From the IMG/VR virus record IMGVR_UViG_2648501334_000005: 26,609 nucleotides of DNA. The stretch is one strand, 5' to 3'. The notes below the pieces were generated by a model. The model made no database searches, had not been told where the DNA came from, and was given only the letters and a program-made list of their open reading frames with translations. Of this stretch, positions 7,905-26,609 are shown piece after piece. The DNA comes from a virus (taxonomy: Duplodnaviria; Heunggongvirae; Uroviricota; Caudoviricetes). Each line of letters opens with the position of its first letter. Position 1 is the stretch's first letter. A program made the translations under genes and the position numbers.

Positions 7905-7914
7905 GGAATTTAGC

Positions 7915-10924: not shown

Positions 10925-10942
10925 GTGCGACCGTGGTCGCAC
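10925..10942. promoter_or_regulatory. sopC-like 18-bp palindrome GTGCGACCGTGGTCGCAC, copy 3
   Basis: Same arms as copies 1 and 2 with the centre inverted. Lies in the intergenic region between the 75-aa ORF and the tR'-like terminator. Confidence 0.5.
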
Positions 10943-10947
10943 AGCTT

Positions 10948-11175: not shown

Positions 11176-11188
11176 AACGCCTCTCTAA

Positions 11189-11428: not shown

Positions 11429-11575
11429 ATAGTTAGTGGGTTATTGCCCCTCAATGACACGAACTGTAACTCTGCCAAACGAACACATCCAGTGTTATTT
11501 TTCGCTTTTTAGTGAAATTTTTAATTTGCGCTGTTTTCTTGTTTTGGTGTATTTTATGGATATGGAGGCTATAAT

Positions 11576-11887
11576 ATGTTTAACGTGATAACCCACCCTG
11601 CAGCACTGGATGAACTGCTTGAACTACCAGATGATCTGCGAGGTCGCATGACCAGATTAATTGAGCGACTGGAGAAAGAAGGCAACAAACTGAAGATGCC
11701 CCATAGCCGTGTAATAGGTGGAGGGCTTTTTGAACTACGAGTAGGGGATAAAAACATCGCAAGAACGCTGTACGCCTACGCGACTGGTAACGAAATTTAT
11801 CTATTGCATGCATTTGTAAAAAAGACACAGAAAACACCGGTGAAGGCTATCGAAATCGCCAGAACTCGCCTGAAGGAGATGAACTGA
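11576..11887 (+). CDS. Type II toxin, RelE/ParE superfamily (HigB-like / Gp49-like), 103 aa
   Basis: Track ORF. C-terminal LFELRVGDKNIARTLYAYATGNEIYLLHAFVKKTQKTPVKAIEIARTRLKE matches the Gp49/HigB-like consensus. GGAGG Shine-Dalgarno before the ATG. Stop overlaps the next ATG (TGATG). Confidence 0.75.
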   Translation: MFNVITHPAALDELLELPDDLRGRMTRLIERLEKEGNKLKMPHSRVIGGGLFELRVGDKNIARTLYAYATGNEIYLLHAFVKKTQKTPVKAIEIARTRLKEMN

Positions 11888-12174
11888 TGAAAGCGAAAGG
11901 CATCCCGTTTAACGAAGTAAAAGAAAAACTCCTCAACACTCCAGAAGCCGTCAAAGGATATGAAGAGGCCGACAAAGAGCTGGAGATGGTCGAAATGTTA
12001 TACGAAATGAGGGAAAGAGCAGGTTTAACGAAATCAGCTCTGGCTGAACGAATGGGGTTGCGACCGTCAGCCATCAGCCGCCTGGAAAGCAATCCTTTAG
12101 GGGCAAGTATGAAAACTTTGGCTAAATATGCTCATGCCTGCGGCGCAACCATCGATATTCGCGCTGTTTATTAA
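11887..12174 (+). CDS. HTH XRE-family antitoxin (HigA-like), 95 aa
   Basis: Track ORF. Helix-turn-helix segment LTKSALAERMGLRPSAISRLESN. Translationally coupled downstream of the toxin, in the toxin-first order typical of HigBA. Confidence 0.75.
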   Translation: MKAKGIPFNEVKEKLLNTPEAVKGYEEADKELEMVEMLYEMRERAGLTKSALAERMGLRPSAISRLESNPLGASMKTLAKYAHACGATIDIRAVY

Positions 12175-12216
12175 TTAGACTCTTTTACTACCCCGTCCAG
12201 AAGGGCGGGGTGTGCA

Positions 12217-12420
12217 TCAATGATGTGAACGCTCAACAGCGATAGTTTTCTGACAATGCTGGGCAATCTCTCGCGACATGTTGATGAGTCGTGAAACCTC
12301 ACCAATATGTAGGCTGGCTTCTGGAGAAGCCAGGGTGACGCTAACCAGATCCAGAACGGCGTCAATATCTCTTAAATTTGAATCGAGTTGTTCAAGAGTT
12401 GATACGGCTGCTTCAGACAT
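12217..12420 (-). CDS. Hypothetical protein, 67 aa
   Basis: Track ORF. No family recognised. Confidence 0.35.
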   Translation of the reverse strand: MSEAAVSTLEQLDSNLRDIDAVLDLVSVTLASPEASLHIGEVSRLINMSREIAQHCQKTIAVERSHH

Positions 12421-12502
12421 TAAATCTCATACCATTTAACTAAAAAAGGTTATTTATACTGTATAAAATTACAGGGTAAAACTCAAACTTTACGGTCAAT
12501 TT

Positions 12503-12745
12503 TCAATGAATTAACTGCGTAAACTGCTGTGTGGCCCGATACTTATGCTCTCTCCCTATGCCACGATCAACTTTCTCAAGAAGTCCAGTACGGACAGCAG
12601 AATCAAGCATCCTTTTAACAATTCTGCTATTTAACCCAACATCAAAAGCAAGCATCGAAGCGAAAACAAACCCATCACCACCATCAGAAAAGCTCTTTTC
12701 GCTCCGTTTTCGTATCATTTCAAAAAGCAATGCCTTTTTATCCAT
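12503..12745 (-). CDS. Hypothetical protein, 80 aa, possible winged-helix DNA-binding fold
   Basis: Track ORF. No family recognised. Confidence 0.4.
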   Translation of the reverse strand: MDKKALLFEMIRKRSEKSFSDGGDGFVFASMLAFDVGLNSRIVKRMLDSAVRTGLLEKVDRGIGREHKYRATQQFTQLIH

Positions 12746-12763
12746 TTATCCCTCCGTGACCAG

Positions 12764-13090
12764 TCACGCTTTGAGTGCAAGTTTCAGCCTCGTGGTTGTA
12801 AGGTGGCATGACCCTTCGCCATCAAAAATGCATTCTGAAACAGGCATTTTTTGACCACATCGCGGGCAAGTAGTAGATAGCTGCTTCTGCAGCTCCTTAT
12901 AGTTTTTCCTGATCAGCAAACCAATGACTTCGTTCTCCGAATATGGAACTCGCCCTGGTCTACGCAATACACAAATTTCCCCCAACATACGTAACTCGTC
13001 AGGTTCTAGAATCCAGTCCCGTCTTGATGTGCCTTCCTTCTTCAATCGTTCCCTGCGTCTCCTTTGCCGTTCTGCCGGTGTCAGCGCCAT
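12764..13090 (-). CDS. Hypothetical protein, 108 aa, arginine-rich N-terminus and a CPRCG zinc-ribbon-like motif
   Basis: Track ORF. No family recognised. Confidence 0.4.
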   Translation of the reverse strand: MALTPAERQRRRRERLKKEGTSRRDWILEPDELRMLGEICVLRRPGRVPYSENEVIGLLIRKNYKELQKQLSTTCPRCGQKMPVSECIFDGEGSCHLTTTRLKLALKA

Positions 13091-13105
13091 AAATCCTCCT
13101 GAAAA

Positions 13106-13855
13106 TTACTTAACCCAATTAACTACACCGCCAGCGGCCACAACCGCCCTTTCACAGTCACGCTCATATCTCAAAGGTTGAAATACACCATCAATAAAAT
13201 ATTTATCTCCACCAAACGCTGCAGGAAGTGAAACAGAAAACTGAATATAACCATCCGGAGTTACCGGAGAGTTGCCAGCCAGTCTACGCAACACAGCCTT
13301 AACCGCCTCAATACGGTCATCATCGCAATTTTCCAGCGTATCTATGCGATCGAGCATGATGATGGCGTTATCAATATCAGGATTGCCGGTCCACTCATTA
13401 CCGCGATTGGATTCGGCAGCCTGGTTGCCGTGTACTGTTTGATTCTCGGCTTTACCCAGTCTGTCGTCGCTGCATGAATGCCCTTCCAGCCAGGCCAATG
13501 CTTGTCGCATGAAATACGCAATATGTTTGCCGTGGTAATCGTCTTCATCGATGTGAAAAGCGATACTGCGGATGTATTCAATTGCGTTTTCAATGGCCTC
13601 CGGCGTTATCGGCGCTGGCGGCGCAGCGAATAGATATCCGCCAAAATCAGGAAGCTCTCCAATGGCCTGTACGAACTTTTGTTTGCCTACGTCAATTCCT
13701 AATGGGTAGTGAGCTATAATCTTTGCCACTGGCTCTGCTTCCAGCGAGGCTAACGCTATTTCATAAGCCCGGCGCTCAATATTGTCTCGCACGTCCAGGC
13801 TGCCTATACGCTCTTTGATTTCTTTAATCAGTTCTTTGTCGGTAAAAGTAGTCAT
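13106..13855 (-). CDS. Hypothetical protein, 249 aa
   Basis: Track ORF, long and uninterrupted. No family recognised. Confidence 0.5.
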   Translation of the reverse strand: MTTFTDKELIKEIKERIGSLDVRDNIERRAYEIALASLEAEPVAKIIAHYPLGIDVGKQKFVQAIGELPDFGGYLFAAPPAPITPEAIENAIEYIRSIAFHIDEDDYHGKHIAYFMRQALAWLEGHSCSDDRLGKAENQTVHGNQAAESNRGNEWTGNPDIDNAIIMLDRIDTLENCDDDRIEAVKAVLRRLAGNSPVTPDGYIQFSVSLPAAFGGDKYFIDGVFQPLRYERDCERAVVAAGGVVNWVK

Positions 13856-13858
13856 GTG

Positions 13859-14146
13859 TTAGTCCTCATCCACTTCAACGCCATCTTTCAGCGTGATGCC
13901 GTGCCAATCATCAGCCCAACTGGTTAGCCCTGGCGCATCAATGCTAGGCATATAGACGCTTGCAGTGTGGTAGCCCTTATCGTTATCAATGCTGGCAACG
14001 TGCTCACCGTTGTATGCGCTCAGCGTGTCCAGGACGCTATAAAACTTTCCTCCGGCTGCCCTGAAATCCTTTACAGCCTTCACAAGGCGATTCCACGCTT
14101 TTTCCTGTTCCGGCGTCAGGTCGACTAATTCCTGCAAAGTTGCCAT
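13859..14146 (-). CDS. Hypothetical small acidic protein, 95 aa
   Basis: Track ORF, tightly packed with its neighbours. No family recognised. Confidence 0.45.
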   Translation of the reverse strand: MATLQELVDLTPEQEKAWNRLVKAVKDFRAAGGKFYSVLDTLSAYNGEHVASIDNDKGYHTASVYMPSIDAPGLTSWADDWHGITLKDGVEVDED

Positions 14147-14147
14147 A

Positions 14148-14660
14148 TCACTCTCCTTTGATGCGAATGCCAGCGGCGCGGATTGCAGCGATGACTTCAG
14201 AAACTTTGTATGCCATTACCGTTTGGTAATCATCGTGAAAATCTGTTCGATGAAGCATGCTGCTACGTTCCGGGAGCAGTATTTCCCGCTCCTCCAGTTC
14301 TGCTACGCGCTGTTTTGCAGCATCCAGCTCAATCGACAATTTTTCCAACTGCTCTTTATGCTTCTTGTATTCCTGATATGCGTGCCAAGACTGACCTTTG
14401 CGCACACTATCAGTGATATCAGTAATCTGTTCTGGTGTTAGCGTGGTCAGTGGCTGTGATGGGAAAATAAGCACTTTACCGGAATCCCAATCAAAACCAG
14501 CGTGAATTGACTGAACCTCAACTGAAGGTGTTGAACCAATGCTGCCAGGCGAATGAACAACGATTGTTACATCCATATCGCGACGATGGCTGTGGTTGTT
14601 GGACAAAATACGATTCAACAAAATACGATTCACCAACTCAGAAAATTTAGAAAATTTCAT
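14148..14660 (-). CDS. Hypothetical protein, 170 aa (start may instead be the internal Met at about 14576)
   Basis: Track ORF. The 5' part contains a tandem 15-bp repeat. No family recognised. Confidence 0.45.
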   Translation of the reverse strand: MKFSKFSELVNRILLNRILSNNHSHRRDMDVTIVVHSPGSIGSTPSVEVQSIHAGFDWDSGKVLIFPSQPLTTLTPEQITDITDSVRKGQSWHAYQEYKKHKEQLEKLSIELDAAKQRVAELEEREILLPERSSMLHRTDFHDDYQTVMAYKVSEVIAAIRAAGIRIKGE

Positions 14661-14947
14661 GCTGATTCACCTTTCTCTGCTCTCTCCTGTCGGAACATCA
14701 CTATCATCAGGTCGCCTTTTGTCGCTATCCTGGCTGTTGTGCCTGGCTCAATGCGGCTAAGTTCAAATGCGCCATAGAACGCCTCCAACGCTTTCTGGCG
14801 TAGTTCCTGTTTGCGCCGTTTTTTCCACTGTTTTAGGAAAATGGAACCCAGCCATCGCCATGTACGGGACATGATGTAAAGCCAACCGAGAAGTGCCAGA
14901 CCGGTATTTAGGGCCGTATCGATCGTTATCGTGGTGTCGATATTCAC
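14657..14947 (-). CDS. Hypothetical small membrane protein, 96 aa
   Basis: Track ORF. One hydrophobic helix (LNTGLALLGWLYIMS) then a basic region. Start overlaps the upstream stop; stop overlaps the next start. Confidence 0.4.
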   Translation of the reverse strand: MNIDTTITIDTALNTGLALLGWLYIMSRTWRWLGSIFLKQWKKRRKQELRQKALEAFYGAFELSRIEPGTTARIATKGDLMIVMFRQERAEKGESA

Positions 14948-15366
14948 TACGCCACCTCCTGAAAATTTCCCTGATAAAAAGCCAGCACACGCTGCATAAC
15001 TTCACTTTTCCGGCAATCGTGACAAATCATGTTCAAGCGCCTGTCGTAACGACGTATTTCTCCGTCAGGTAATGACCAGATAAGGTCTGGATCAACCACT
15101 ACCGATTTCTTCGGCTTTACTCTTGATAGCTTTTTGCGGGCGTTTTGCCAGTCCTTGCGCGCTTGTGCAGACAGAAATATCCCGGAGCCAGAGATATACA
15201 AATCACCACTGGCAGCAAGCTCTCTTGATAAACGACTAACAGCACACCGGCTAATACCAGTTTCATCCGCAAGTTGCCTAACAGTTCCTCGTCCATTCAG
15301 GCGCACGAGTTCCACAATTTGTTTATTCAGTTCTTCTCTCTGTTCTGGTGTAAAAGCCTTTGCCAT
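14947..15366 (-). CDS. Hypothetical HTH-containing protein, 139 aa
   Basis: Track ORF. HTH-like segment VRQLADETGISRCAVSRLSRELAASG. Coupled to the exonuclease gene. Confidence 0.5.
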   Translation of the reverse strand: MAKAFTPEQREELNKQIVELVRLNGRGTVRQLADETGISRCAVSRLSRELAASGDLYISGSGIFLSAQARKDWQNARKKLSRVKPKKSVVVDPDLIWSLPDGEIRRYDRRLNMICHDCRKSEVMQRVLAFYQGNFQEVA

Positions 15367-15965
15367 TACGATTCTCCTTGCCCTTTTACAAGACGGGAGA
15401 AAATTGCGGATACATATTTAGCCTGATGAATAGCATCAGCCAGGGCATTGTGTCGTTCGCCATCAAATGGCATATCTTTTTTAGGATTAAAACCAATAAA
15501 CTGACCAAGATTAACGATTGTTCGAACATCCTGATCATTAAAATATTCCCACGGACAGGCTAAGCCAACGCGCTCATAAGCACCGCGTAAAATAACATTA
15601 TCGAAAGTTGCTCCATTTCCCCATACTTTCAATTTTTTTAAATTACATGCATGGCAAGTAATAAAGTGTGATAATTCAAAAAGTGCATCCTTAATATCAA
15701 GGGCATCATTAGTACAAATTGCGGCTCTGGCTTCCTTGCTCTGTTTCAACCACCATAAAATGGTATCACCATCGGCGACACCACCATTCAACATAGAGCT
15801 TCTGAGATTCACTGGCACATAAAAAGTAGGACCTAATTCCTCACTTTCTGGAGAAAAAAACACTGCCCCGATAGAAACAATTGGAGCACATGTGTTAGTA
15901 CCCATTGTTTCAAGGTCAATCATTACATCAGACCGTTTCCTGTCGTAAATAATCTGATTAGTCAC
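15366..15965 (-). CDS. DEDDh-type (DnaQ-like) 3'-5' exonuclease, 199 aa
   Basis: Track ORF. Exo I motif MIDLETMG and Exo III motif HNALADA are present. Confidence 0.75.
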   Translation of the reverse strand: MTNQIIYDRKRSDVMIDLETMGTNTCAPIVSIGAVFFSPESEELGPTFYVPVNLRSSMLNGGVADGDTILWWLKQSKEARAAICTNDALDIKDALFELSHFITCHACNLKKLKVWGNGATFDNVILRGAYERVGLACPWEYFNDQDVRTIVNLGQFIGFNPKKDMPFDGERHNALADAIHQAKYVSAIFSRLVKGQGES

Positions 15966-15988
15966 GAATAATTCTCCTCAACGTTTAT

Positions 15989-16192
15989 CTATACCCAAAT
16001 TTTCTGTTGATATGTTCTGGATGGTTTTGGCGTTCTTTCTGATTCAGGTAAATGAACATAAACGCAATATCCATCACCTAAAAAATCAGAACGAACAACC
16101 AGAACTTTCTTACCACGCCGCCGATAAGTATCTGAAAGACGCTCTGCTTCATCATGCGTCATCGGCCCCTGCTTAAATGGCGTTATTTTCAT
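15989..16192 (-). CDS. Hypothetical protein, 67 aa
   Basis: Track ORF 15989..16216 trimmed to ATG 16192..16190 (MKITPFKQGPMTHDEAERL...). The track's upstream extension is the palindrome itself. Confidence 0.4.
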   Translation of the reverse strand: MKITPFKQGPMTHDEAERLSDTYRRRGKKVLVVRSDFLGDGYCVYVHLPESERTPKPSRTYQQKIWV

Positions 16193-16493
16193 TTTCTTGT
16201 GCGACCACGGTCGCACCCTCTCTGATTTCCAAGTAACGCTTAATCCAAAGATTTTCTATATGCTTATTACCTGGCTGATTTGATAAATACCAATCGGCAA
16301 TTACAGACTGCTTATTACTATCTGGCCGTGTCCTGTAACCACAAGTTGGACACCAGATAACATATTCATTTCTTACCCCCGAATACCTTAATTCTGGCTT
16401 CGACGGTTTCCTGAACATAACTTGTTTACAAAGGCAGAATGGCACTTCCTGCCCGATGGCGTTTGATGATTTCACTGCGCTTCTCCGCCGCAT
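16173..16493 (-). CDS. Zinc-ribbon protein, possibly Lar-family restriction alleviation protein (start uncertain)
   Basis: Track ORF. YVIWCPTCGYRTRPDSNKQSVIADW resembles the Lar-family pattern of CxxC followed by an AIxAW motif. The 3' end encodes ATVVAQ across palindrome copy 4. Confidence 0.35.
   Translation of the reverse strand: MRRRSAVKSSNAIGQEVPFCLCKQVMFRKPSKPELRYSGVRNEYVIWCPTCGYRTRPDSNKQSVIADWYLSNQPGNKHIENLWIKRYLEIREGATVVAQENENNAI
16199..16216. promoter_or_regulatory. sopC-like 18-bp palindrome GTGCGACCACGGTCGCAC, copy 4
   Basis: Identical to copies 1 and 2. Lies in the 3' end of the Lar-like ORF, just upstream of the next gene start. Confidence 0.5.
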
Positions 16494-17136
16494 TTAATAA
16501 TGCAGTTCGATTTAAGCTCAGACATCGCGACTTAATTAAAAGCCAGCGTTCTTTATAATCTTGTCTCCAGCTATCAATAGATATATTCAGTAGAAAACTC
16601 AGATGCCTGTCCTGTTCTCTCTCATCAACTGCCTCAGCACACGTAAGTTCTGATTTAACCTGTTGTGCCGCGTAATAAATCAATTTCCGCATGGCTTTTT
16701 TCGTGGAGGCCTTCATTTTTTTAAAGCCCCCCCCCGAATGAGCAACCAGAAAATCAAGCCATAACCACTGACAAACAATCACATCATTGTTGTAATCAGG
16801 CTTGCATCCGTAGCAATAATAAAGCCAGGCTGATTCCTCGTTATTCAACTGACCAATAGCCCTGCGCCAGCTGGCGCTCTGAAAATCAATATCAGTGAGC
16901 AACATTGATGATTGTTTAAATGTTTTCCCCTGGTGGAATCTAACCGGCTCAGCAGGAACGGACACTTCGTATGAGTTATCATCCCCCACACTGATTGACC
17001 GGACTGGTTTATTGTTAAACCGTCCTGATCTACCGAGACGCATCTGCTCAAGCTGGACCTCCAGAATGCCACGCTGGCGATAATGAACATCGGCCAATGC
17101 CGTAGAGACGCAGCTGCGTATATACTCAAGCTCCAC
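16426..17136 (-). CDS. Putative late-gene antiterminator Q-like protein (assigned by position directly downstream of cro; family not confirmed), 236 aa
   Basis: Track ORF overlapping the cro-like stop. Cysteine cluster YYCYGCKP...C. In N15 the immB region is organised cB-cro-Q. Sequence is not lambda-Q-like. Confidence 0.35.
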   Translation of the reverse strand: MELEYIRSCVSTALADVHYRQRGILEVQLEQMRLGRSGRFNNKPVRSISVGDDNSYEVSVPAEPVRFHQGKTFKQSSMLLTDIDFQSASWRRAIGQLNNEESAWLYYCYGCKPDYNNDVIVCQWLWLDFLVAHSGGGFKKMKASTKKAMRKLIYYAAQQVKSELTCAEAVDEREQDRHLSFLLNISIDSWRQDYKERWLLIKSRCLSLNRTALLNAAEKRSEIIKRHRAGSAILPL

Positions 17137-17347
17137 GCTTACGACTCTCCTTAATCGACTGCTTTACCCGCCGAGTTGTAAAGTCACTCTTCAGCTTATA
17201 AGCAGTACGAACTTCAATATCGCTTTGCCGCAATGAAGGAATCTCTCCAGCGGTTAACCATTGGTAAACAGCTCCGGGTGTTACACCTACCCCTGCTGCT
17301 GCTTTTTCTACACTGCCAAAGTGGCGAATAAGTTCTTCTGGTTTCAT
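17126..17347 (-). CDS. cro: Cro-like HTH regulator (YdaS-type), 73 aa
   Basis: Track ORF 17126..17374 trimmed to ATG 17347..17345 (MKPEELIRHFGSVEKAAAGVGVTPGAVYQWLTAGEIP...). Divergent from the cB-like gene, with operators in between. Confidence 0.65.
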   Translation of the reverse strand: MKPEELIRHFGSVEKAAAGVGVTPGAVYQWLTAGEIPSLRQSDIEVRTAYKLKSDFTTRRVKQSIKESRKRGA

Positions 17348-17374
17348 GTTGTTATTATAAACAATAAACAACAA

Positions 17375-17416
17375 TTAAAGCCAGCTATAATAAATAAATT
17401 TTATAGCCAGCTATAA
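17375..17416. promoter_or_regulatory. Two 16-bp palindromic operators (O1 TTAAAGCCAGCTATAA at 17375-17390; O2 TTATAGCCAGCTATAA at 17401-17416) in the cro/cB divergent promoter region
   Basis: Half-sites TTATAGC/GCTATAA with a 2-bp centre, repeated 26 bp apart between the divergent cro-like and cB-like starts. Confidence 0.5.
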
Positions 17417-17438
17417 GAAGATCATTTATGATTACAGT

Positions 17439-18035
17439 ATGAAAACACGAGGCGAACGACTGAAAGCACGCCGTTTAGAGATGAAGCTGACGTTGCGAGA
17501 AGTTGCTGAGGCTGTCGATATCTCTATAGCAGGCGTCCAAAACTTAGAACGTGGCGACGTAATGCCGTCACTGGAGATAGGTATTGCCCTGGCTAAGTGC
17601 TTACGCAAGCCAGTGCATTGGGTGCTATATGGGACAGAATATGACCCTGATCGCATTCCTGTTATTGGCACAACTGAAAGTGGGCCGGATGAAGAGTGGA
17701 AGCCGGGACAGGTTCCAAATACTGAGCGATTCCTGCCATTCATCAGCCAGCGCAATACTGTGTATGCGTTAACTATCAGCAATCTTACGCAGGGAAACTA
17801 TCAGCCAGGCGATTTTCTCCTGGTCGATTCTGCGCTGGAACTGGTCCCCGGCGAGGATGTTCTGGTTCGTGATACTGCAGGAAATATCACTATCCAGCGC
17901 CTGGCCCGTTTTGATGATGAAAATTACTATCTGGATGGAACAAACTCACAACGCGCCATCTTCAGGAAAAGCGATCTTGAATTTGTTCACCAAATAGTCG
18001 GAACGATCAAATCATTCATGGTTGAGGGTAGATGA
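17439..18035 (+). CDS. cB: Prophage repressor CB/CI-like (N-terminal HTH XRE domain, C-terminal S24 LexA-like domain), 198 aa
   Basis: Track ORF. N-terminal HTH LTLREVAEAVDISIAGVQNLERG. C-terminal domain with lambda-CI-like segments PGDFLLVD...GEDVLVRD. Divergent from cro. Confidence 0.8.
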   Translation: MKTRGERLKARRLEMKLTLREVAEAVDISIAGVQNLERGDVMPSLEIGIALAKCLRKPVHWVLYGTEYDPDRIPVIGTTESGPDEEWKPGQVPNTERFLPFISQRNTVYALTISNLTQGNYQPGDFLLVDSALELVPGEDVLVRDTAGNITIQRLARFDDENYYLDGTNSQRAIFRKSDLEFVHQIVGTIKSFMVEGR

Positions 18036-18124
18036 CTTAATACGGGGTTTATTGTTTGCTGTAAATCTGGTTTAATGCAGGGCATATGTTCTGTGGGTTG
18101 ACTCAGGTTACAGCAGCAGAAAAA

Positions 18125-18164
18125 AGACGAAAAAAAACCCGAGTCGGCAAACTCGGGTCCTTTT
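18125..18164. terminator. Bidirectional intrinsic terminator downstream of the cB-like gene
   Basis: CCCGAGTCGGCAAACTCGGG hairpin flanked by an A-run on the 5' side and TCCTTTTC on the 3' side. Confidence 0.5.
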
Positions 18165-18280
18165 CAGGAAGCAGCCACAGTAACGCGACGGATTCCGTCA
18201 ATTCAAGATGCGTTTATTGTGGCTGCTCCTGCGGATTTTTTCAACCCGAAAAAACATAATTCGCATGGAATGGCTAAAAA

Positions 18281-21200
18281 ATGACATTAAACGATTTCTA
18301 TGCGGATCGCTTTGGCAGCGATCCGTTCTCGCTAATTGAAGCAGCACGGGATGAACTAACCGAGCTGGCACAGATGGCTGGTATCAACTGGCCTGCCTGT
18401 TCCGACAACATCCAACTCAACCCTCGCGGGGGGGTTGAGCGTTACTCTTCATACAATAAAACATCTCCAGAAGCTCTCGAAAAGAGCCTGAAAGGACGCG
18501 TAGAAATTTACTCCAGGCTGGAACACAGCAAAGGGATTGATTACCCGTTCATTAACTTCGTCCATAAAGGCAGCGATGCTGGCTCATGGAGCGGTTTCTC
18601 CTTCCTGTTTTCTGAATATCGCCGTGAGCAACAACGGAATAATGCGACCGTGGTCGCACAACCGGAAGAAGAACGGGAAAGAATAGAACGTCAGGCCGAA
18701 GCACGTCGTCGCCGTGAAGAACAAAAACGAATTAATGACCTGAAAAACAACCAAATGGACCATGAACGTTTGCTGGGATGGCTGGCATTCCACAGCGCGT
18801 GGGAACATGCTCCGGCTGAAGACGGCTCATGGCCATATGCGATTAAAAAAGGTATTCGTGACGTTTTTAGTTCATGTGATGTGCGTCGCGTGACCAGTCA
18901 CGACAGTGCGAAATGGAGCCGGGGGCCAACCACATATATGGCTATCCCTCTGGCTCACCTGGACGGTCGTTATGATGGTCGTATTGTGGGTTGGCAGCGA
19001 ATCGACAAACAAGGTGGGAAATACCAGACCAGCGCAGTAACCAGCGGCGATTTCGTCGGTGCCTGCTTTGTTATCGGTGAGCTGAAAGGGGCGCAAAACA
19101 TCGCTGTTACAGAAGGTTTTGCTACTGGTGCATCCATCTGGCTTGCCACGAAAAAAGATAAACGCTTTGACGCTGTGGTTGTCGCTGTATCCGCTAACAA
19201 CATGGTTCATGTTGTGGAACAACTGGTAAACATGTACCCGGCGGCAAAAATCACCTGCGCACTGGATAATGACCGGAAATCTGCCACAGAAGGAAAAGGG
19301 AATACAGGCCTGCGGACTGGCTATGAAATCTTATCGAAATTCAACGATGTCCGCTGCGTCTATCCAACTTTTGAAGACGATCCGCAAATGGAGTGCAGTG
19401 ACTTCAACGACCTGCACAAACTACGTGGACTTCGTGAAACAGCACGTCAACTATTTGCAACAGCAAACCGCCTGAAAACCGGTACTGATTTGCTATCTCT
19501 GACGCTCAACCGCCTGAAGACAATTAAGCGGGATAACCGTCGTACTTTTGCCAAAGAGCTGCTGAGAGCGGTGGATATTGGCATGCTAACCTGTCCGGTT
19601 CCTAACAGTCCGTCAGATTTATTTAACATGTTCTGCATCGTTCTGCGTGAAATGGGACTGGAAAATATCTATCGCGCTACGGTAAAAGACCACATTGCCC
19701 GTCGCCTGAATAAAAAGTGCCGTATTGCCCAGGCTCCGCGCTCTTTCAGCGAACGCATAACTGATCCCAATAAACGCCCTCAACATATCACCTATAAGCG
19801 TTTTGAAACTTCGGTAATGACCGATGATGTCCTGAAGTACGTGCAATCACTACAGGGGATAGTCATCGTCCGTGCTGGTATGGGTTCCGGCAAATCTACT
19901 GGATTGTTACGACCGTTAATGCATAGCTCAGAACGTGGTATCTCTGTTGCTCACCGTGTCTCCCTTATTGGTGGCCTGTGGGAAATGATGACAGAAGGAA
20001 AAGGTGTAAAAGCCGATATCCTGCACTATCAGGATCCTGGCTATCAGGAAATGGCTCCATACGCCAGTAAACTGACCATCTGCATAAACTCGATTGTTAA
20101 AAACTGCTGGCAACCGTTGATGCGCCAGCACGACTATTTTGGCTTTGACGAGGCCACACAAGGGCTACGTGCCGTTCTTTCCGGTCGGGCTATGGAAAAC
20201 CCGGTGGCTGTATTCAATACGCTAATTGACGCGCTGGCCAGAACGGAACAACACCCAATCATGGTAGATGCTGATGCGAACGATCTGCTGGTTGACCTGG
20301 CTGAACTGGCTATGAAACGCCGTGAAGAACTAGGTTTACCGGCATGGCTGCAGATCCACGTAATTGAATTACCTGTTGATGTTCGCAACCGCGAAACAGG
20401 TGAGCCAATCCGGGTTTTTTATACAGAAAAAGATCGCATCATGACCGAGGTGGTGAAAGCTGTATCGGATGGCGAAAAAATCATGTTGGCCACCGACAGC
20501 TCCACCTTTGCAGAAGATGTGACAGCCACCCTGAGAATGCATTTTCCTGGTAAGAAATTTCTGTGTGTAAACCAGAAAAACAAACCAGAGCCAGAAGTTG
20601 AAGCATTTACCAATCAACCGAAAAAGATGGTCAAAAAATACGACGGCCTGATTTATAGCCCGTCTATTTCATCCGGCGTGTCGATTGAGCAAAAACATTT
20701 TGACCGTCATTTCGGCATGTTCTGTGGTGAAGTTGTACCCAGCGACGCAGTGCAAATGCTACGCCGCGACCGTACAGCAAAAGAATTTATTATCGGCTTT
20801 GATAAAGCTCGTGCAAAACGTGAAACTGACCCGCAAAAAATAGAACGAGCATTCGCCCAGGCATTGCTTGCTACCGCAGGTATGAACGGTGAACTGACGG
20901 ATGTCGTTTTCGATGGCGACCGTATATCAATGGGGGTGGCCAATACCGACTTTACCAGGATGAAAATTAAAGCAGCCGCAATTGAAGCGACTGCGCGTAA
21001 CGACTACGCCAGCAACATGATCTGCATCATGCACAGCGACGGTTATAAGGTATCGCCGCTGGCCACCGATTATGCTGCGAATGATATCGGTAAAGATCTG
21101 CGTAAAGAAGCGCGGGATATTGTGTGGGAACAGACACTGGATCTGCACCTCAATACAGAAACTCCACAAGAATCAGAGCGTGAAGAACTGCTAAAAAAAC

Positions 21201-22276
21201 GCGCGCTGACGCTTGAAGAACAGGCAAAACTTGTCCGCTGGGATATTGAAAACGAACTGAAACTACCGGTTGAAGAAGGCACGCTAAAATTCTATTTCGA
21301 TGGTGCTCGAGACAAAGTTCGCCGCTATGAAACAATGCTTTTAGATGAGGTAACAGCTCGTCGTTACGACCGGGAAGAAGCAGCCATCAATTTTACCTAC
21401 GCATACCGTCAGGCGGGACAGTGGCAATATTTTGTAGTGACCGCGATGACTCGCGAGCAGGCTGATGATGTCTTTAAAACTAAATTCCCTGGAATAATCG
21501 ATCACAAGGTAAAAGCTACTCCTACTGTTGAAGTCGGGGCGCGCGGTTTCTATGCGCTTAAATCAGCAACTCTCCGGCAGTACTTTATCGACTGCGGTAT
21601 CAACCCTGAGACTATGACCGGCGAGGCGACTCAGGAGCGTCTCAAATTCGCTCGAGATAACCTCATGACAGCCGAACGCCGTGACCTGTTGAATAACGTT
21701 CTGCACATTGGTGGTTTTATGACGCCAAAAGGGAAGCCTAAAGTGCCGGAAGCGTTGTTTAAAAACATTTGCGACTCTCTTGGCCTTAAAACAGGTAAAC
21801 GTCGCGGCAGAGACGGCGATAAGCGTCCAACCTTGCGTTTTGTTGAGCCTGAATCAGCGGCATTTATGCTGGATATTCTTGTTCAGCGTCAGAAAGATGG
21901 CCTAACACTAAAAACGCGTAAAGCCGAGAAGACAGCCATCGAAATGGATCGCGATTTGGATCTCAATATATATATGGATGATAAAACGCGATCCACAAAC
22001 GAGCAGGTTCAAAACGCCCCTCATTCAGTAATTTCTGAGGCTTTGGCCGTGTTGCCAGTGGCTGTACCTGAGTCCTGGGCGATGAGTGCGCTTTCCAGTG
22101 AGGAGTTGGCCACTATGTCATCATGGTCATCAGCCAGCATAGCTATGACGTTTGCATCCCTGTACCTCACAGAGTTCATGGATCACCTTTCCAGCAATGA
22201 GCTGCGGCGGTTACGTGAATACATTACGGGGAATAGCTCATGCAGCTACGAAGAGCAGGGTGCTTTCTATGGGTAA
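18281..22276 (+). CDS. repA: Replication protein RepA, multidomain primase (TOPRIM) - helicase, 1331 aa
   Basis: Track ORF. TOPRIM-like motifs NIAVTEGFATGASI and CALDNDRKS, Walker A GMGSGKST and Walker B-like FGFDEAT. Size and position next to cB match N15 RepA (about 1324 aa as I recall). Confidence 0.9.
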   Translation: MTLNDFYADRFGSDPFSLIEAARDELTELAQMAGINWPACSDNIQLNPRGGVERYSSYNKTSPEALEKSLKGRVEIYSRLEHSKGIDYPFINFVHKGSDAGSWSGFSFLFSEYRREQQRNNATVVAQPEEERERIERQAEARRRREEQKRINDLKNNQMDHERLLGWLAFHSAWEHAPAEDGSWPYAIKKGIRDVFSSCDVRRVTSHDSAKWSRGPTTYMAIPLAHLDGRYDGRIVGWQRIDKQGGKYQTSAVTSGDFVGACFVIGELKGAQNIAVTEGFATGASIWLATKKDKRFDAVVVAVSANNMVHVVEQLVNMYPAAKITCALDNDRKSATEGKGNTGLRTGYEILSKFNDVRCVYPTFEDDPQMECSDFNDLHKLRGLRETARQLFATANRLKTGTDLLSLTLNRLKTIKRDNRRTFAKELLRAVDIGMLTCPVPNSPSDLFNMFCIVLREMGLENIYRATVKDHIARRLNKKCRIAQAPRSFSERITDPNKRPQHITYKRFETSVMTDDVLKYVQSLQGIVIVRAGMGSGKSTGLLRPLMHSSERGISVAHRVSLIGGLWEMMTEGKGVKADILHYQDPGYQEMAPYASKLTICINSIVKNCWQPLMRQHDYFGFDEATQGLRAVLSGRAMENPVAVFNTLIDALARTEQHPIMVDADANDLLVDLAELAMKRREELGLPAWLQIHVIELPVDVRNRETGEPIRVFYTEKDRIMTEVVKAVSDGEKIMLATDSSTFAEDVTATLRMHFPGKKFLCVNQKNKPEPEVEAFTNQPKKMVKKYDGLIYSPSISSGVSIEQKHFDRHFGMFCGEVVPSDAVQMLRRDRTAKEFIIGFDKARAKRETDPQKIERAFAQALLATAGMNGELTDVVFDGDRISMGVANTDFTRMKIKAAAIEATARNDYASNMICIMHSDGYKVSPLATDYAANDIGKDLRKEARDIVWEQTLDLHLNTETPQESEREELLKKRALTLEEQAKLVRWDIENELKLPVEEGTLKFYFDGARDKVRRYETMLLDEVTARRYDREEAAINFTYAYRQAGQWQYFVVTAMTREQADDVFKTKFPGIIDHKVKATPTVEVGARGFYALKSATLRQYFIDCGINPETMTGEATQERLKFARDNLMTAERRDLLNNVLHIGGFMTPKGKPKVPEALFKNICDSLGLKTGKRRGRDGDKRPTLRFVEPESAAFMLDILVQRQKDGLTLKTRKAEKTAIEMDRDLDLNIYMDDKTRSTNEQVQNAPHSVISEALAVLPVAVPESWAMSALSSEELATMSSWSSASIAMTFASLYLTEFMDHLSSNELRRLREYITGNSSCSYEEQGAFYG
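18642..18659. promoter_or_regulatory. sopC-like palindrome ATGCGACCGTGGTCGCAC, copy 5 (17/18), inside repA coding sequence
   Basis: Same TGCGACC/GGTCGCA arms. Encodes ATVVAQ in RepA. Confidence 0.45.
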
Positions 22277-22460
22277 TGATTGGATATTATCTTTGTGTCT
22301 CTTGCTTTATGTGTTCCATCTATGGTTTTGGTTCATAGACCGAAAGTCTCACAAGGAAAACATGAAGGCCAGGAAGGCGATGTTTCGTGGTGAACAATTT
22401 GCGCAGACTTATCGTATGTGGAAACGTTTCTATCGTGAATTTTCGGTGAACGGGGAGTAA
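22269..22460 (+). CDS. Hypothetical small membrane protein, 63 aa (start uncertain)
   Basis: Track ORF 22152..22460 trimmed to the ATG overlapping the repA stop. One hydrophobic helix (ILSLCLLLYVFHLWFWFI) then a basic tail. Weak ribosome-binding site. Confidence 0.3.
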   Translation: MGNDWILSLCLLLYVFHLWFWFIDRKSHKENMKARKAMFRGEQFAQTYRMWKRFYREFSVNGE

Positions 22461-22464
22461 AAAT

Positions 22465-22791
22465 ATGTCTACTACTGCATTTTTGGACAAACTTGATTAC
22501 CGTCAGCTGCAGTTCTGCCGGGATGAATGCGAACGACGCATTAGGGCTATCCAGGAGGAAGAAAAAAAGGTCGCCTGGGCTGTAACAGATCGTGGCCTTA
22601 TCTTTGGCTGGTTCCGTACGGAGGATTATCTGAAAGCAGTGGAATTATTGGCGCGTAAGGCTGCTGAGCGTTGGGAACGAGCCGACAAGGAAAACCCGGA
22701 GACGAAGTATGAACTGAATCTCTACATCGAGGGCAACCGTCTACCATTGTCAGAGTATAACGCTTTGTTTGCTGATGGTGAGTGGGGTTAA
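22465..22791 (+). CDS. Hypothetical protein, 108 aa
   Basis: Track ORF with a GGGGAG Shine-Dalgarno 7 nt upstream. No family recognised. Confidence 0.45.
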   Translation: MSTTAFLDKLDYRQLQFCRDECERRIRAIQEEEKKVAWAVTDRGLIFGWFRTEDYLKAVELLARKAAERWERADKENPETKYELNLYIEGNRLPLSEYNALFADGEWG

Positions 22792-22793
22792 AA

Positions 22794-23189
22794 ATGGCTG
22801 TTCAATCATACAAATACGAATCCCCTTTGGATAAGGGATACATTCGTATCAAGTTAAGTCGTTCTCAGCATAAGGCTATTTTTAAGGTAAGGAAAATTCG
22901 CATATTGGATGCGTATGCGTATTACTACAACGGTGAAAATGTTGTTGTTGAACACTTTCTTGCACGATGGTTTGTAGCTCTGATTTTTGTCCCTCTCCTG
23001 TTAATTGGTACTTTTGTGGATGGTTTTCCTAGTACATGGCGGGAGATAAAGAAAGGCCTATTCCCGCATAAGTACGGCAGATTTTCGCAAGATAGCTGGC
23101 GAGTTATACCAGGTAAACATTCTGTAGATGAGCAACCGATTGTTGATTCCTGGTTGAATCGTATGGCTGATGCTAAAAAAGTTGATTGA
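22794..23189 (+). CDS. Hypothetical membrane protein, about 131 aa (track start 22782; first ATG after the upstream stop is 22794)
   Basis: Track ORF. Hydrophobic helix WFVALIFVPLLLIGTFV. No family recognised. Confidence 0.4.
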   Translation: MAVQSYKYESPLDKGYIRIKLSRSQHKAIFKVRKIRILDAYAYYYNGENVVVEHFLARWFVALIFVPLLLIGTFVDGFPSTWREIKKGLFPHKYGRFSQDSWRVIPGKHSVDEQPIVDSWLNRMADAKKVD

Positions 23190-23195
23190 ATTGTG

Positions 23196-23504
23196 ATGAC
23201 TGTTACAGGAGATAAAGTGAAGAGTTTTATTTTTGTTTTATGTTTTGCCTTTTCTGCTGCGGTTTATGCCCAGGAAGATAGCATTTCTGTTATTAACTCA
23301 TCAGCGGAGCTTGCATGTAAAAATAATCCCGATGCTGCATCAAAAGAGTCATGCAAAGAGCTGCTCCTTTCGACGGCTGCTTTTGCTTCTGAAAATGCAA
23401 AATTTTATTCAGCCTTTTGTCGCGGCTATGTTAAGGACGAAGATAAAGAAAAATGTGATGATGCCGGTAAGTTAGTTAGGTATTTCCAATCTCTTAATCA
23501 GTAA
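23196..23504 (+). CDS. Small secreted cysteine-containing protein with N-terminal signal peptide (start 23196 ATG, or GTG at 23217 after an AGGAG)
   Basis: Track ORF. Signal-peptide-like KSFIFVLCFAFSAAVYA followed by QEDS (AxA-type cleavage site). Mature part has 4 Cys. No family recognised. Confidence 0.5.
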   Translation: MTVTGDKVKSFIFVLCFAFSAAVYAQEDSISVINSSAELACKNNPDAASKESCKELLLSTAAFASENAKFYSAFCRGYVKDEDKEKCDDAGKLVRYFQSLNQ

Positions 23505-23644
23505 TGGCCTTTGATTAACGATCAACTTCTGATCACTCGTTCAAGCAAACTATAAAAACACCTGTCCCCGTGACTGGTCACGGGGTAAAATGTCTTTGCA
23601 AATTATTGACGTGCGCGTCGTTTTGACGGTAAAGTTTACTCCGC

Positions 23645-23717
23645 TACGGTAAATCCCGTAGCCGGGCGTAGGAACCCGAGTAAATGAAGCGCACAACACG
23701 CGCCAGCGTGTTTTTTT
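23645..23717 (+). ncRNA. Candidate c4-like antisense/regulatory small RNA of an immI-like anti-immunity locus
   Basis: Possible promoters with TTGACG -35 boxes at 23606-23611 and 23623-23628. Hairpin GCTACGG-TAAATC-CCGTAGC. Intrinsic terminator at 23696-23717 (ACACGC-GCCA-GCGTGT followed by T7). GTAGGAA motif (23668-23674) is complementary to TTCCTAC (23801-23807) in the icd leader. Boundaries are approximate. Confidence 0.3.
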
Positions 23718-23880
23718 GTGTGTAAAATCTGCGTACACCAAATTTATGGTGGCTCAGATGGGGCAGCTTTTAGCTGGCCGGTTTCTTCGTTTACCGGTAT
23801 TCCTACCCCCGTCTGGGCTACCGCCATATAGAGCGTAGGAACTCTGGTGGTAGCACGACCAATTAAACGGAGTGCATACC

Positions 23881-24045
23881 ATGTTCAAATTCAAATTTGC
23901 GGCAATCGTTCGCACAGACAAAAAGTCACACATCCATCATCTTTCCACCATCGCGTCATCTGAACGGGAAGCTCGTCGCCAGTTCGCCAGCCGGTTTGTC
24001 CTGGTATTGTCTGCCCGTATTCCGGTGCGCGAGGTGGCTGCATGA
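23881..24045 (+). CDS. icd: Icd-like small protein (host cell-division inhibitor family), 54 aa
   Basis: Below the track's length cut-off. ATG at 23881 with GGAG upstream. Translation MFKFKFAAIVRTDKKSHIHHLSTIASSEREARRQFASRFVLVLSARIPVREVAA has an Icd-like ARRQF...ARIPV pattern. Stop overlaps the next ATG (ATGA). Confidence 0.45.
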   Translation: MFKFKFAAIVRTDKKSHIHHLSTIASSEREARRQFASRFVLVLSARIPVREVAA

Positions 24046-24275
24046 ATCAGGTAAAAATGAACACTGTTGGCCTGCTGGAATCGTTGGATGAACGTCTGGC
24101 TCAGGTCTATGCGCTCGTATCATCAGCCCATCGGACAATCTCCAGTTGTGAGGCGTCGATTTATCTCTCAGAAGCAGGGAAACTCCTTCAAATTGCGTGT
24201 GAGCTAACACACGAAGCACAGGGTTATTCAGCATCGCTCTCGTCGCAATTGCTGCACGATAAGGAGGCTGAATGA
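24042..24275 (+). CDS. Hypothetical protein, 77 aa, in the anti-immunity operon
   Basis: Track ORF, translationally coupled to the icd-like ORF. No family recognised. Confidence 0.4.
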   Translation: MNQVKMNTVGLLESLDERLAQVYALVSSAHRTISSCEASIYLSEAGKLLQIACELTHEAQGYSASLSSQLLHDKEAE

Positions 24276-24436
24276 GCGCGTTAGCAGTATTTTCCTTTCA
24301 GGAAGAGCATCAGGTTCGTGTAGTGATGATCAACGGCGAACCGTGGTTTGTTGCATCTGATGTGTGTATGGCGGCGGGTATTGATTCTACGGCCATCAGA
24401 AAGTTGGATGAGCACGAAAAGGGGCAGGCGAGGTAG
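24272..24436 (+). pseudogene. ant: Truncated antirepressor: BRO-N domain N-terminal fragment, 54 codons
   Basis: AAGGAGG Shine-Dalgarno then ATG at 24272. MSALAVFSFQEEHQVRVVMINGEPWFVASDVCMAAGIDSTAIRKLDEHEKGQAR matches the start of BRO-N/Ant domains but stops after the EKG motif. Only about 45 bp remain before the telN 3' end. Confidence 0.45.
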
Positions 24437-24481
24437 ACCACACAACAAGGCACCGATAATTCGGTGCCTTTACCGTATGCT

Positions 24482-26383
24482 TTATCCGAAATATGTCAGC
24501 CATGCTAACTGCATTGCTGATATAGGGCTGTTTGCACTGCCGGACCAAGCATAATTCTGGCCATTATAATGAAACTCAACAACGTATGAGCCATCACCAA
24601 TATTTCTCACAGGCTTAAATACCGGCTTAGATACAGGTGAAGAAGGCGCGGGCGGTTGCTGTTCTTCTACGCTCTCTTCCTCTTCCTCTTCCTCTTCCTC
24701 TATCTCAATTTCGTCGTCATCCAGATCGTCATCCTCTGATAATTCATCCGTCTGTTCAGGTATTGCTTCCAGCTCTTCTTCGTCAGGCATAACGATTTCT
24801 GGAGAATCTATTTTCAGCTGCCATTGTCCATTTTCGCCAACAAATTGCCCCAGAGCATCAGCAGCAAATTCCAGGTATCGACTAATCATTGTAGGGCTAA
24901 ATTTGAATGCTCTTAGAGTGCTGTTCGTGATTTTTATAGAGGGGTCCTGCTCTACCAGCTGCTTAACTGTGTTATGCAGACGAACTCCGGCATCTCCTCT
25001 GGCGAATCCTGGCATTTCGTCATCAAGCTGCTGCAATGCTTCCAGCCTGGTATTTTCGTTTCCAGTATTTGGCCTCCATGTCTTTGAGAAGTTGGCCAGC
25101 TTGAATTGCTTATAGTGTAATTGAGTGTTTTCATCGTCATGGCCTAAAATTTCCATAAAGAAAACATCCTCATCTACGTTTTTCCAACGAGGATCTACGC
25201 GGAAAAACATTTCATACGCAATACGGGCATAAATAGCACGACTATCTTTATAAACACGGCGGTCATCTTTGAAAAATGATTTAACCCACGGGTTAAAAGC
25301 CTTTGCTAATATGGCATTAATCCGTCCGTTTTCAGAGCGTGTGTCGTTATCTCCATAACCTTTAACGACATCATCAAAATCAGATGCTGCTGGGCATGAG
25401 CGAAGTACATTTATTAAATAAACAAATGTTTTTGCTTCGCATAATGTATATATTTTTCTGGTTATATCATCAGAAGTTCTTTTTTTTGCTTGGCCTAAAA
25501 AATCAACGGTATACTTACCAGAAACAGTAAATGTACCTTGATACATAATCTCAATCATTCGTCTTCCAGACAATGCAGCAAGTGCAAATGCCAAAGGAGC
25601 CATACCTGAACGAGTGTTTAGATTATTTAATGTAGCAGGGCTATTTATAATATCGTAAATAGCTTGCATATATTTAGGGTAATCAATGACCACTACGTTA
25701 CGTTTCTTATTGTGCAGAACGTCTGCCCATCGTTGCTGGATAGATGCGCGTTCGGCAGGGCTTAGTTGAAGATGATAGAGAATCTCATGGTTAACTTTTA
25801 GCTGATTCAACTCCTCAAGTAAGGCAGATCCTTGCTGTAGTAATTTATATAAATAATCGCGCTTATCTTTCCAGTTATCGCTAGTTAAATCAGAAATGGC
25901 GAATTGCCACTCTTTATATTTATTTGATAATTTTAATAACTTATTATGACTTTTGTTATCACCAATTCTGATATTAGATAAATCTTCTGATAAAGGGAGA
26001 ATTAATTTTAATTTTGCCTGTAAAGCTGACATTCTCTGGCGAATATCGGCAGCAGGTAGAGAAAGCCATGATAATAGCTCCTCATTATATAAAGGATACT
26101 TTTCAGATAGGCGATGTATATTTTTTTCAAAGCTATGATGAAGTTTATCATCAAACCGTTTTCTGGCCCTGCTCATATAGGCATTGAATGTGTTGGCTGT
26201 AATTCTTTTTTCTAATCCTTTCCCCCTAAACTTTCGCTTGTCATTAAATAATGCATTTTTAAATTTTAATGCAACAGCTTTTATTTTTTTTGTTTTTTCC
26301 CCTTGAGGACGGTCAGAGTTATCTATTGACTCAACATCGCTAACAAGTGAGTTTATTAATTCACCGATTTTTACTTTGCTCAT
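24482..26383 (-). CDS. telN: Protelomerase (telomere resolvase) TelN, 633 aa
   Basis: Track ORF. MSKVKIGELINSLVSDVESIDNSDRPQGEKTKKIKAVALKFKNALFNDKRKFRGKGLEKRITANTFNAYMSRARKRFDDKLHH... tracks N15 TelN (about 631 aa) as I recall it, including the acidic C-terminal stretch. Strong AGGAGAGG ribosome-binding site. Confidence 0.92.
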   Translation of the reverse strand: MSKVKIGELINSLVSDVESIDNSDRPQGEKTKKIKAVALKFKNALFNDKRKFRGKGLEKRITANTFNAYMSRARKRFDDKLHHSFEKNIHRLSEKYPLYNEELLSWLSLPAADIRQRMSALQAKLKLILPLSEDLSNIRIGDNKSHNKLLKLSNKYKEWQFAISDLTSDNWKDKRDYLYKLLQQGSALLEELNQLKVNHEILYHLQLSPAERASIQQRWADVLHNKKRNVVVIDYPKYMQAIYDIINSPATLNNLNTRSGMAPLAFALAALSGRRMIEIMYQGTFTVSGKYTVDFLGQAKKRTSDDITRKIYTLCEAKTFVYLINVLRSCPAASDFDDVVKGYGDNDTRSENGRINAILAKAFNPWVKSFFKDDRRVYKDSRAIYARIAYEMFFRVDPRWKNVDEDVFFMEILGHDDENTQLHYKQFKLANFSKTWRPNTGNENTRLEALQQLDDEMPGFARGDAGVRLHNTVKQLVEQDPSIKITNSTLRAFKFSPTMISRYLEFAADALGQFVGENGQWQLKIDSPEIVMPDEEELEAIPEQTDELSEDDDLDDDEIEIEEEEEEEEESVEEQQPPAPSSPVSKPVFKPVRNIGDGSYVVEFHYNGQNYAWSGSANSPISAMQLAWLTYFG

Positions 26384-26539
26384 CTTTCCTCTCCTGATTA
26401 TCCGCTCGGATTATCGTAACACAATTTGAGAATAAGATAACTAATAACGCGTTAACTTAGTCACAAACTAACAGAACACAATAACGGATAATAAACAAAA
26501 ACACAATATCGGAACGTTAAAATCTGTTCCTTGATTTTG

Positions 26540-26609
26540 TTCTAAAGATCAGCACATAATCCCCCATTATACGCGCGTATAATGGGGGATTATGTGCTGA
26601 TCTTTAGAA
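26540..26609. other. telRL: Telomere resolution site (telRL / tos core): perfect 70-bp palindrome centred on ACGCGCGT
   Basis: 26540-26609 is a perfect inverted repeat, checked base by base, with centre between 26574 and 26575. Core CCATTATACGCGCGTATAATGG matches the N15 telO palindrome as I recall it. It reaches the final base of the window. Confidence 0.9.

Follow-up and report, generated by a model that had tools for sequence, protein, structure and literature searches.

Where does a linear replicon end when its sequence runs into a perfect palindrome at the edge of a contig? This question is raised by a stretch of DNA, 26,609 nucleotides long and hereafter called the window, whose final bases form such a palindrome next to a gene resembling telN, the protelomerase (telomere resolvase) gene of phage N15. 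The initial annotation left two options: a hairpin telomere that had been read around during assembly, or the unresolved telRL site with more DNA beyond. Here, we weigh these and other readings against the contig itself, its relatives and the known telomere-resolving systems, and find the first option to be very probably correct.

The window and its right edge

The window is one complete contig of a draft assembly, LJYA01000021.1 (26,609 bp, GCA_001306685.1), and covers 26.6 kb on the telN side of a linear plasmid-prophage of E. coli that is N15-like (Ravinvirus-type). In a comparison of contig and window, bases 8281–26609 are identical. Because the window is the entire contig, its right edge is the contig end. 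The initial annotation had called for inspection of what follows position 26609 in the source assembly, and GCA_001306685.1 has nothing beyond that base. The sopA-side arm of this strain is not seen, because GCA_001306685.1 has it on a different contig. The full element is about 46 kb long, and the contig holds 26.6 kb of it.

An intact protelomerase gene

The telN gene occupies positions 24482–26383 on the minus strand and encodes 633 amino acids from an ATG start. Its product matches four Pfam families, each well over the gathering cut-off: TelK_N (2e-41), TelK_muzzle (1.3e-50), ResT-TelK_cat (4.5e-25) and TelK_stirrup (1.2e-48). The initial annotation had this ORF following N15 TelN through most of its length, and the two proteins indeed align end to end with 78% identity. 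The best conserved part is the stirrup (92%), followed by the catalytic region (86%), the N-terminal domain (85%) and the muzzle (70%), with the acidic C-terminal tail down at 55%. A frameshift in telN had been named as an observation that would count against the linear plasmid-prophage reading; the reading frame is uninterrupted. By its domain content and alignments, the ORF is an intact protelomerase of the TelN/TelK family.

Identity to other protelomerases, as measured by tblastn, is 73% for TelK of Klebsiella phage phiKO2, 43% for PY54 Tel, and 26–33% for the proteins of Vibrio and Halomonas (marine) telomere phages. The crystal structure of TelK (PDB 2V6E) matches residues 1–536 of the window TelN with E = 1.9e-295, and this alignment, interrupted by just one 1-residue gap, takes in R275, K300 and the HY motif that carries the tyrosine nucleophile. 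At R275 and K300, reportedly active-site residues of TelK (Aihara et al. 2007), the two proteins agree. TelK differs in coming from another host genus, and the C-terminal 97 residues of the window TelN lie outside the crystallised construct. PY54 Tel and the marine proteins, together with Borrelia ResT and Agrobacterium TelA, belong to the same superfamily and share the same hairpin-telomere logic, but they are far more distant and act on other target palindromes. TelA and ResT are without muzzle and stirrup domains (PMC3558466).

Tyr424 of the window TelN, in the motif TQLHYKQF, pairs with the tyrosine of the TelK HY motif and with Tyr425 of N15 TelN. In N15 TelN, the substitution Y425F is catalytically dead and abolishes resolution (PMC12624138). 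By homology with TelN and TelK, the window TelN would be expected to carry out the same cleaving-joining reaction. The C-terminal linker contains a poly-Glu tract encoded by a CTCTTC hexamer repeat at 24674–24701 on the minus strand (TRF: period 6, 4.7 copies, 100% matches). Among relatives, this tract varies from 3 to 21 Glu, and TelN varies in length from 627 to 645 amino acids.

A perfect palindrome with a telO-type core

That a perfect 70-bp palindrome ends at the window edge was correctly noted at the outset: positions 26540–26574 and 26575–26609 form 35-nt arms that are 100% complementary and have zero spacer. They meet at an axis between 26574 and 26575, at a distance of 191 nt upstream of the start codon of telN, and the final base of the second arm is the final base of the window. 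The chance probability of a perfect 35-nt inverted repeat with zero spacer is about 4^-35 per position, and the palindrome cannot be attributed to chance.

The palindrome centre had also been likened to the N15 telO core, and this comparison holds at every base. A telO-type core of 22 bp, CCATTATACGCGCGTATAATGG, spans 26564–26585 and is identical to the N15 core at 22/22 positions. Within it, the sequence CGCGCG (26572–26577) lies between the two predicted scissile positions. The TelK target has the same central CGCGCG, which is the native 6 bp between its scissile positions, and cut spacing is 6 bp in all known protelomerases (PMC3558466). Over the central 56 bp, the palindrome matches N15 telRL at 47 positions. 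Mismatches cluster in the spacer that separates the core from the outer ATCAGCACAyAAT box, which is where the two arms of N15 differ from each other as well. Exact-pattern scans of viral, genome and metagenome contig collections for the window's own variant of the palindrome gave no match. The "terminator-like" matches at 26552–26597 were rejected, as they are the palindrome itself.

Between telN and the palindrome lies the presumed telN promoter region (26384–26539, plus strand), with AACACAAT-type repeats at 26418, 26475 and 26500. The blocks ATCGTAACACAAT, GAACAyAAT, AACACAAyAyCGGAA and TGTTCT have been kept relative to N15, while the surrounding DNA has diverged, and the AACACAAT-type repeats and TGTTCT blocks are positioned as in N15. 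For N15, "additional repeats in the flanking DNA" have been described (PMC12624138), and the repeats of the window agree with this description. These are candidate accessory TelN-binding repeats (tos-like), a role suggested by the N15 literature that PMC12624138 cites. Over the whole window, the count of RAACACAAT is not enriched relative to shuffles (2 observed versus 0.78 expected), so the case for tos-like repeats is one of positional conservation with N15 and not of statistics. A promoter scan gave sites no more numerous than in shuffles, and in the 226 nt upstream of telN it found no minus-strand site.

An internal cos site and the plasmid-prophage gene order

Alignment to the N15 ends identified a predicted cosN at 5866–5877 (minus strand), internal and uncut, with the 12-nt cohesive end GGGCGGAAGGCG; it aligns to the cos junction of N15, where the corresponding sequence is GGGCGGCGTCCG. 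Read on the minus strand from 5877 to 5866, the cohesive end is preceded by CAGGCTACG and followed by CGCGGGTTTTCGC, directly upstream of Nu1 (5143–5688, minus strand; Pfam Phage_Nu1, 1.3e-95). In the longer form of the site, which aligns to the joined N15 ends, the flanks are GGTCCTTTCCGGCGATCCGGCAGGCTACG on one side and CGCGGGTTTTCGCTATTTATG on the other. The lambda cohesive end GGGCGGCGACCT was not found, even with one mismatch tolerated. The cos site is internal and contiguous, between the lysis/cargo genes and Nu1, as the initial annotation had described. Such a sealed cos is the plasmid or replicative arrangement.

Inward from the telomere, the genes are ordered telN, anti-immunity region, RepA, CB, Cro, Q and a block of small ORFs. 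The order continues with holin, lysozyme, Rz, two ORFs annotated without function, and cos, past which lie the packaging and head genes Nu1, terminase A, W, portal and C/Nu3 protease. This bears out the N15-type order that had been proposed, and runs from the tel site and telN through the anti-immunity stub, repA, cB, cro, Q, late and lysis genes to cos and Nu1/A/portal, and the layout is the plasmid-prophage permutation. The anti-immunity region consists of a 54-aa Bro-N/Ant stub, a 77-aa ORF of the antirepressor family and an Icd-like ORF. The repA gene (18281–22276, plus strand) encodes a primase/helicase-type replication protein of the linear plasmid, 1331 aa long, with weak Pfam matches to Toprim_3 and Herpes_ori_bp; in relatives, RepA is annotated as a primase or as a plasmid replication protein of the CyRepA1 family. 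CB has an HTH_3 domain with a weak S24 match. The block of small ORFs includes a Gp49/HTH pair and an N6/N4 methyltransferase, and searches of the unannotated ORFs with PADLOC and PHROGs returned nothing notable besides a type II-like methyltransferase and weak HTH matches. The sopAB genes, found in all complete relatives, are not on LJYA01000021.1. No integrase family was found among the called genes of the window, in line with the earlier observation, and no tRNA was found in the window; in the complete genome of the relative PhiR46_1, no integrase is annotated.

A common lineage of extrachromosomal elements

A 633-aa TelN identical to that of the window occurs in 226 blocks of a public gene collection, and an identical RepA in 58. 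The region is matched by 31 plasmid records. Among 5,426 complete E. coli genomes, 17 match, in 23 places, of which 23 are on plasmid records and 0 are chromosomal. The extrachromosomal lifestyle proposed for the element is thus borne out.

The phage PhiR46_1 (PV340565.1), deposited as a linear genome of 46,290 bp with telL and telR annotated, has 97.6% nucleotide identity to the window over 95% of positions 1–25000. Another relative, YDC107_1 (CP025712.1), is assigned to Ravinvirus, to which N15 also belongs. Besides phages, close kin comprise about 30 plasmid records of E. coli, Shigella and E. albertii. In PhiR46_1, YDC107_1 and the plasmid records, TelN is 99.5–99.7% identical to that of the window, with the same gene order and the same telomere arm. 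From the PhiR46_1/YDC107_1 group, the window differs by one T-to-C change in the spacer between core and outer box (ATAATCCCCC versus ATAATTCCCC or ATAATTTCCC) and in minor ways in its cargo ORFs; some relatives have a poly-Glu tract of another length.

The layout of N15 itself (NC_001901), sopBA - tel - telN - ant - repA - cB - cro - Q, recurs in this lineage, with the sop genes seen in the complete relatives. The telN region, however, is too diverged for megablast, which misses N15. The head and packaging genes of the window are lambda-like, with about 96% identity to lambdoid phages; the cos overhang is unlike that of N15 at 4/12 positions; and the antirepressor gene has been cut down to the 54-aa stub. 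Compared with N15, the lineage is a mosaic, with N15-type telN, repA and immunity genes (and sop genes in the complete relatives) joined to packaging and head genes of lambda type.

These comparisons bear on whether there is a telomere here at all. Palindromic chimeric reads are known from some library preparations, and the contig carries only 26.6 kb of the element, so one could suppose that the palindrome is a chimera of library or assembly, or that what is seen is a prophage remnant, integrated or defective. Against this, the axis coincides exactly with the conserved telO core, 191 nt upstream of an intact telN and at the same place as in all relatives. Furthermore, no chromosomal copy was found in the 5,426 complete genomes, and all window genes are intact and collinear with PhiR46_1, which was deposited as a complete genome. 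We consider this explanation extremely unlikely.

Hairpin end or telRL

When all fetched relatives are lined up on the common palindrome centre, three classes can be distinguished. In the first (n = 10), the telN arm runs on into the sopA arm, and the arms have only 21–27 nt in common: 21 nt in general and 27 nt in L009. The two ends of PhiR46_1, a trimmed linear record, likewise have 27 nt in common. Past the common part the sop side reads TTCGTTRTGTTCTTGATTA or ATGTTCTTGATTAG, diverging to TTCGTTRTGTTCTT or ATGTTCTT after 21–27 nt. As the arms are common for this length only, the native telRL of the lineage is a palindrome of 42–54 bp. In the second class (n = 5, comprising YDC107_1, pB16EC0268-3 and three metagenome contigs of the k127_/k141_ type), the sequence folds back completely: past the centre it repeats the telN arm in exact reverse complement over 191 nt or more, and there is a second, inverted copy of telN, ant and repA. 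The third class comprises many contigs that break off somewhere between 24 nt short of the tip and 41 nt beyond it; their overhangs measure 6, 11, 12, 27, 35 and 41 nt. The window belongs here, with an overhang of 35 nt.

The stretch from +22 to +35 of the window (GCTGATCTTTAGAA) agrees with the fold-back records at 14/14 positions, as opposed to 4–8 of 14 for the sop-side arms, and of the last 8 nt only 2 match the latter. Judged by these matches, the extra 8–14 nt per arm in the window is the telN arm read backwards.

An unresolved telRL, in phage or circular form and with the genome running past 26609 into the sopA/sopB arm, would instead continue into TTCGTTATGTTCTTGATTAG or ATGTTCTTGATTAG. 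It is true that the central 42–54 bp of telRL are palindromic in relatives, and that several public records have telN joined to sopA via the tel site. Nevertheless, LJYA01000021.1 ends at 26609, and the sop arm diverges after 21–27 nt in all ten joined relatives, where the window stays its own reverse complement; a sealed cos also speaks against the phage form. This second option of the initial annotation is disfavoured, and we regard it as highly unlikely. A related idea is that the native tel site of this strain is palindromic for at least 70 bp as a real genomic feature, either through a telN-type arm at both ends after arm exchange (telRR-like) or in a persistent head-to-head dimer. A native telRL of 70 bp or more would need TTCTAAAGATCAGCAC beside the core on the sop-side arm of the strain, and we hold such a site to be just as improbable.

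The remaining option, that the contig end is a hairpin telomere read around during assembly, is favoured by the ending of the contig and by the outer 8–14 nt. Reads that cross from one strand to the other are an established hallmark of hairpin ends (PMC13293297). For the window, the fold-back is deduced from the contig and its relatives. In a toy de Bruijn walk on the arm and its reverse complement, new k-mers end (k-1)/2 nt past the tip, so that k = 71 gives 35 nt, k = 55 gives 27 nt and k = 83 gives 41 nt, k being hypothetical for GCA_001306685.1. This rule agrees with the scatter of overhangs among assemblies, but not exactly for every contig. One Logan contig, presumably assembled at k = 31, ends at +12, as compared with +15 under the rule.

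A further reading is that the palindromic reads derive chiefly from a replicated telRR junction, that is, from a head-to-head dimer awaiting TelN, and not from a closed hairpin. Replication of N15 goes via telRR and telLL junctions that are resolved by TelN (PMC12624138), and several assemblies contain long fold-back duplications. In sequence, such a junction is identical to a hairpin read-through, and letters alone do not tell one from the other. Junctions are, however, expected to be transient and rare relative to resolved ends, and hairpins give fold-back reads under standard library preparation too (PMC13293297). This origin of the reads strikes us as unlikely, and the biology would be unchanged in either case: a TelN-resolved linear replicon.

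Taken together, the 70-bp palindrome is, with high probability, the product of an assembler reading 35 nt round the hairpin tip of such a replicon. The arm at 26540–26574 (plus strand), with the outer box ATCAGCACATAAT and one half of the core inside it, matches the telN-side arm of all relatives and would then be the true terminus of the telN-side telomere, running as far as the hairpin tip. The second arm, at 26575–26609 (plus strand), is its 100% reverse complement and appears to be a 35-nt fold-back copy, not additional genome. The comparisons support a true molecular end at 26574; with the symmetry axis as the molecular end, the real sequence would stop 35 nt short of the contig end.

A model for the telomere and its sequencing

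We propose that in the cell the end of the replicon is a covalently closed hairpin, with its tip between 26574 and 26575. Replication through the hairpin would give a perfect inverted-repeat junction. Judging from TelN, TelK and TelA, this junction would be bound by a dimer of TelN via the core and the outer ATCAGCACATAAT boxes. The dimer would then cleave each strand once around CGCGCG, at a spacing of 6 bp. Tyr424 would form a 3'-phosphotyrosine intermediate, and the freed 5' ends would fold back and join the complementary strand, yielding two hairpins (PMC3558466; PMC12624138). In sequencing, templates running round the tip would produce reads that pass from the arm into its own reverse complement; the assembler may have followed these fold-back reads for 35 nt and then halted, leaving a perfect 70-bp palindrome at the edge.

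TelN probably remains on the hairpin, shielding it from SbcCD. In N15, TelN stays bound and guards the hairpin against SbcCD independently of catalysis (PMC12624138). Since the protective N-terminal domains of N15 TelN are 70–86% identical in the window TelN, end protection by the latter is likely, by analogy.

Discussion

The element is of a known kind: the N15-type telomere phages of E. coli have been studied in depth, and the lineage is common in public data. Our analysis therefore adds little to the biology, and its value is one of curation. Many deposited records of the element are mislabelled, some of them called circular and others carrying an artefactual fold-back duplication of 15–45 kb. 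The window shows what a hairpin telomere looks like in a short-read contig, namely a perfect palindrome that halts at the contig edge, with the molecular end of this linear plasmid-prophage most likely to be placed at the axis (26574).

Telomere arms and deposited records

In most relatives (L003, L005–L008, L011 and L013–L015 among the related sequences aligned on the palindrome centre), the sopA-side telomere arm is symmetric with the telN arm over only 21 nt. On the sopA-side arm of most relatives, TTCGTT (TCCGTT in the case of L007) stands where the outer box GCTGAT would be. Unlike these, the close phage relative PhiR46_1 (PV340565.1), L009 and the reference telomere phage N15 carry GCTGAT on both arms. 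Because the sopA-side arm of the GCTGAT-less relatives has TTCGTT or TCCGTT in place of the outer box, their telLL junction (the head-to-head junction of sopA-side ends) would, once replicated, lack this element on both sides. The window itself carries a T-to-C change at 26553, mirrored at 26596, in the spacer between core and outer box (ATAATCCCCC). This variant is seen in no other relative fetched, and exact-pattern scans of three collections gave no match. The mirrored change at 26596, on the second arm, is what a fold-back copy predicts.

Many "complete" deposits of the element are 61–91 kb in length, with the telN arm duplicated by fold-back; a second set, of 46–47 kb, is labelled circular, with the telN and sopA arms joined at the palindrome. 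Records of both kinds (CP088810.1, NZ_CP019258.1, NZ_CP126957.1, CP025712.1, ENA k141_74148 and others; L002, L004, L012, L025 and L033) look like assembly artefacts stemming from hairpin telomeres. At the left end of the window, position 1 falls within the lambda-type head gene region, inside gene D as judged by alignment to PhiR46_1. These head genes are ~96% identical to those of many lambdoid prophages, and hence the contig break probably reflects a repeat in common with a resident prophage.

The cos site and neighboring genes

The predicted cos cohesive end, GGGCGGAAGGCG (5866–5877, minus strand), differs from that of N15, GGGCGGCGTCCG, at 4 of 12 positions. The lambda cohesive end is absent from the window, even when one mismatch is allowed; the cos-flanking sequences and Nu1/A resemble their lambda counterparts. 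Between the lysis genes and cos lie two minus-strand ORFs (6811–7932 and 6237–6686), for which Pfam and PADLOC gave no match and PHROG gave only families of unknown function. Counted from its first possible start, a GTG, the former encodes 373 aa. Its PHROG match begins at residue 88, and the matched part is the size of the 286-aa homologue in PhiR46_1. The extra 87 residues upstream may be due to a start called too far upstream.

A Gp49 (HigB-like)/HTH pair (11576–12174, plus strand) resembles a toxin-antitoxin module. On the minus strand, 9604–10725 encodes an N6/N4 DNA methyltransferase (PADLOC MTase_II, 4.8e-118); none of the ORFs scanned gave a restriction partner for it. Genes of these kinds are usual cargo of phage-plasmids.

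Variation in and beside telN

Among near-identical relatives, TelN ranges from 627 to 645 aa and its poly-Glu tract from 3 to 21 Glu, nearly the sole difference within the region compared, tail residues 556–610. In the window, the tract is encoded in the C-terminal linker by a perfect CTCTTC repeat of 4.7 copies (24674–24701, minus strand). This length variation suggests replication slippage. The TelN region holding the tract is reported not to be needed for telomere protection (PMC12624138).

Adjoining telN is a Bro-N/antirepressor ORF (24272–24436, plus strand) that encodes an N-terminal stub of 54 aa, whereas its counterparts in YDC107_1 (CP025712.1) and the related contig L026 encode 257–258 aa, and gene 30 of N15 encodes full-length Ant. 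Within the lineage, the stub is the commoner form, present also in PhiR46_1, and thus the lineage does not appear to need a full-length Ant.
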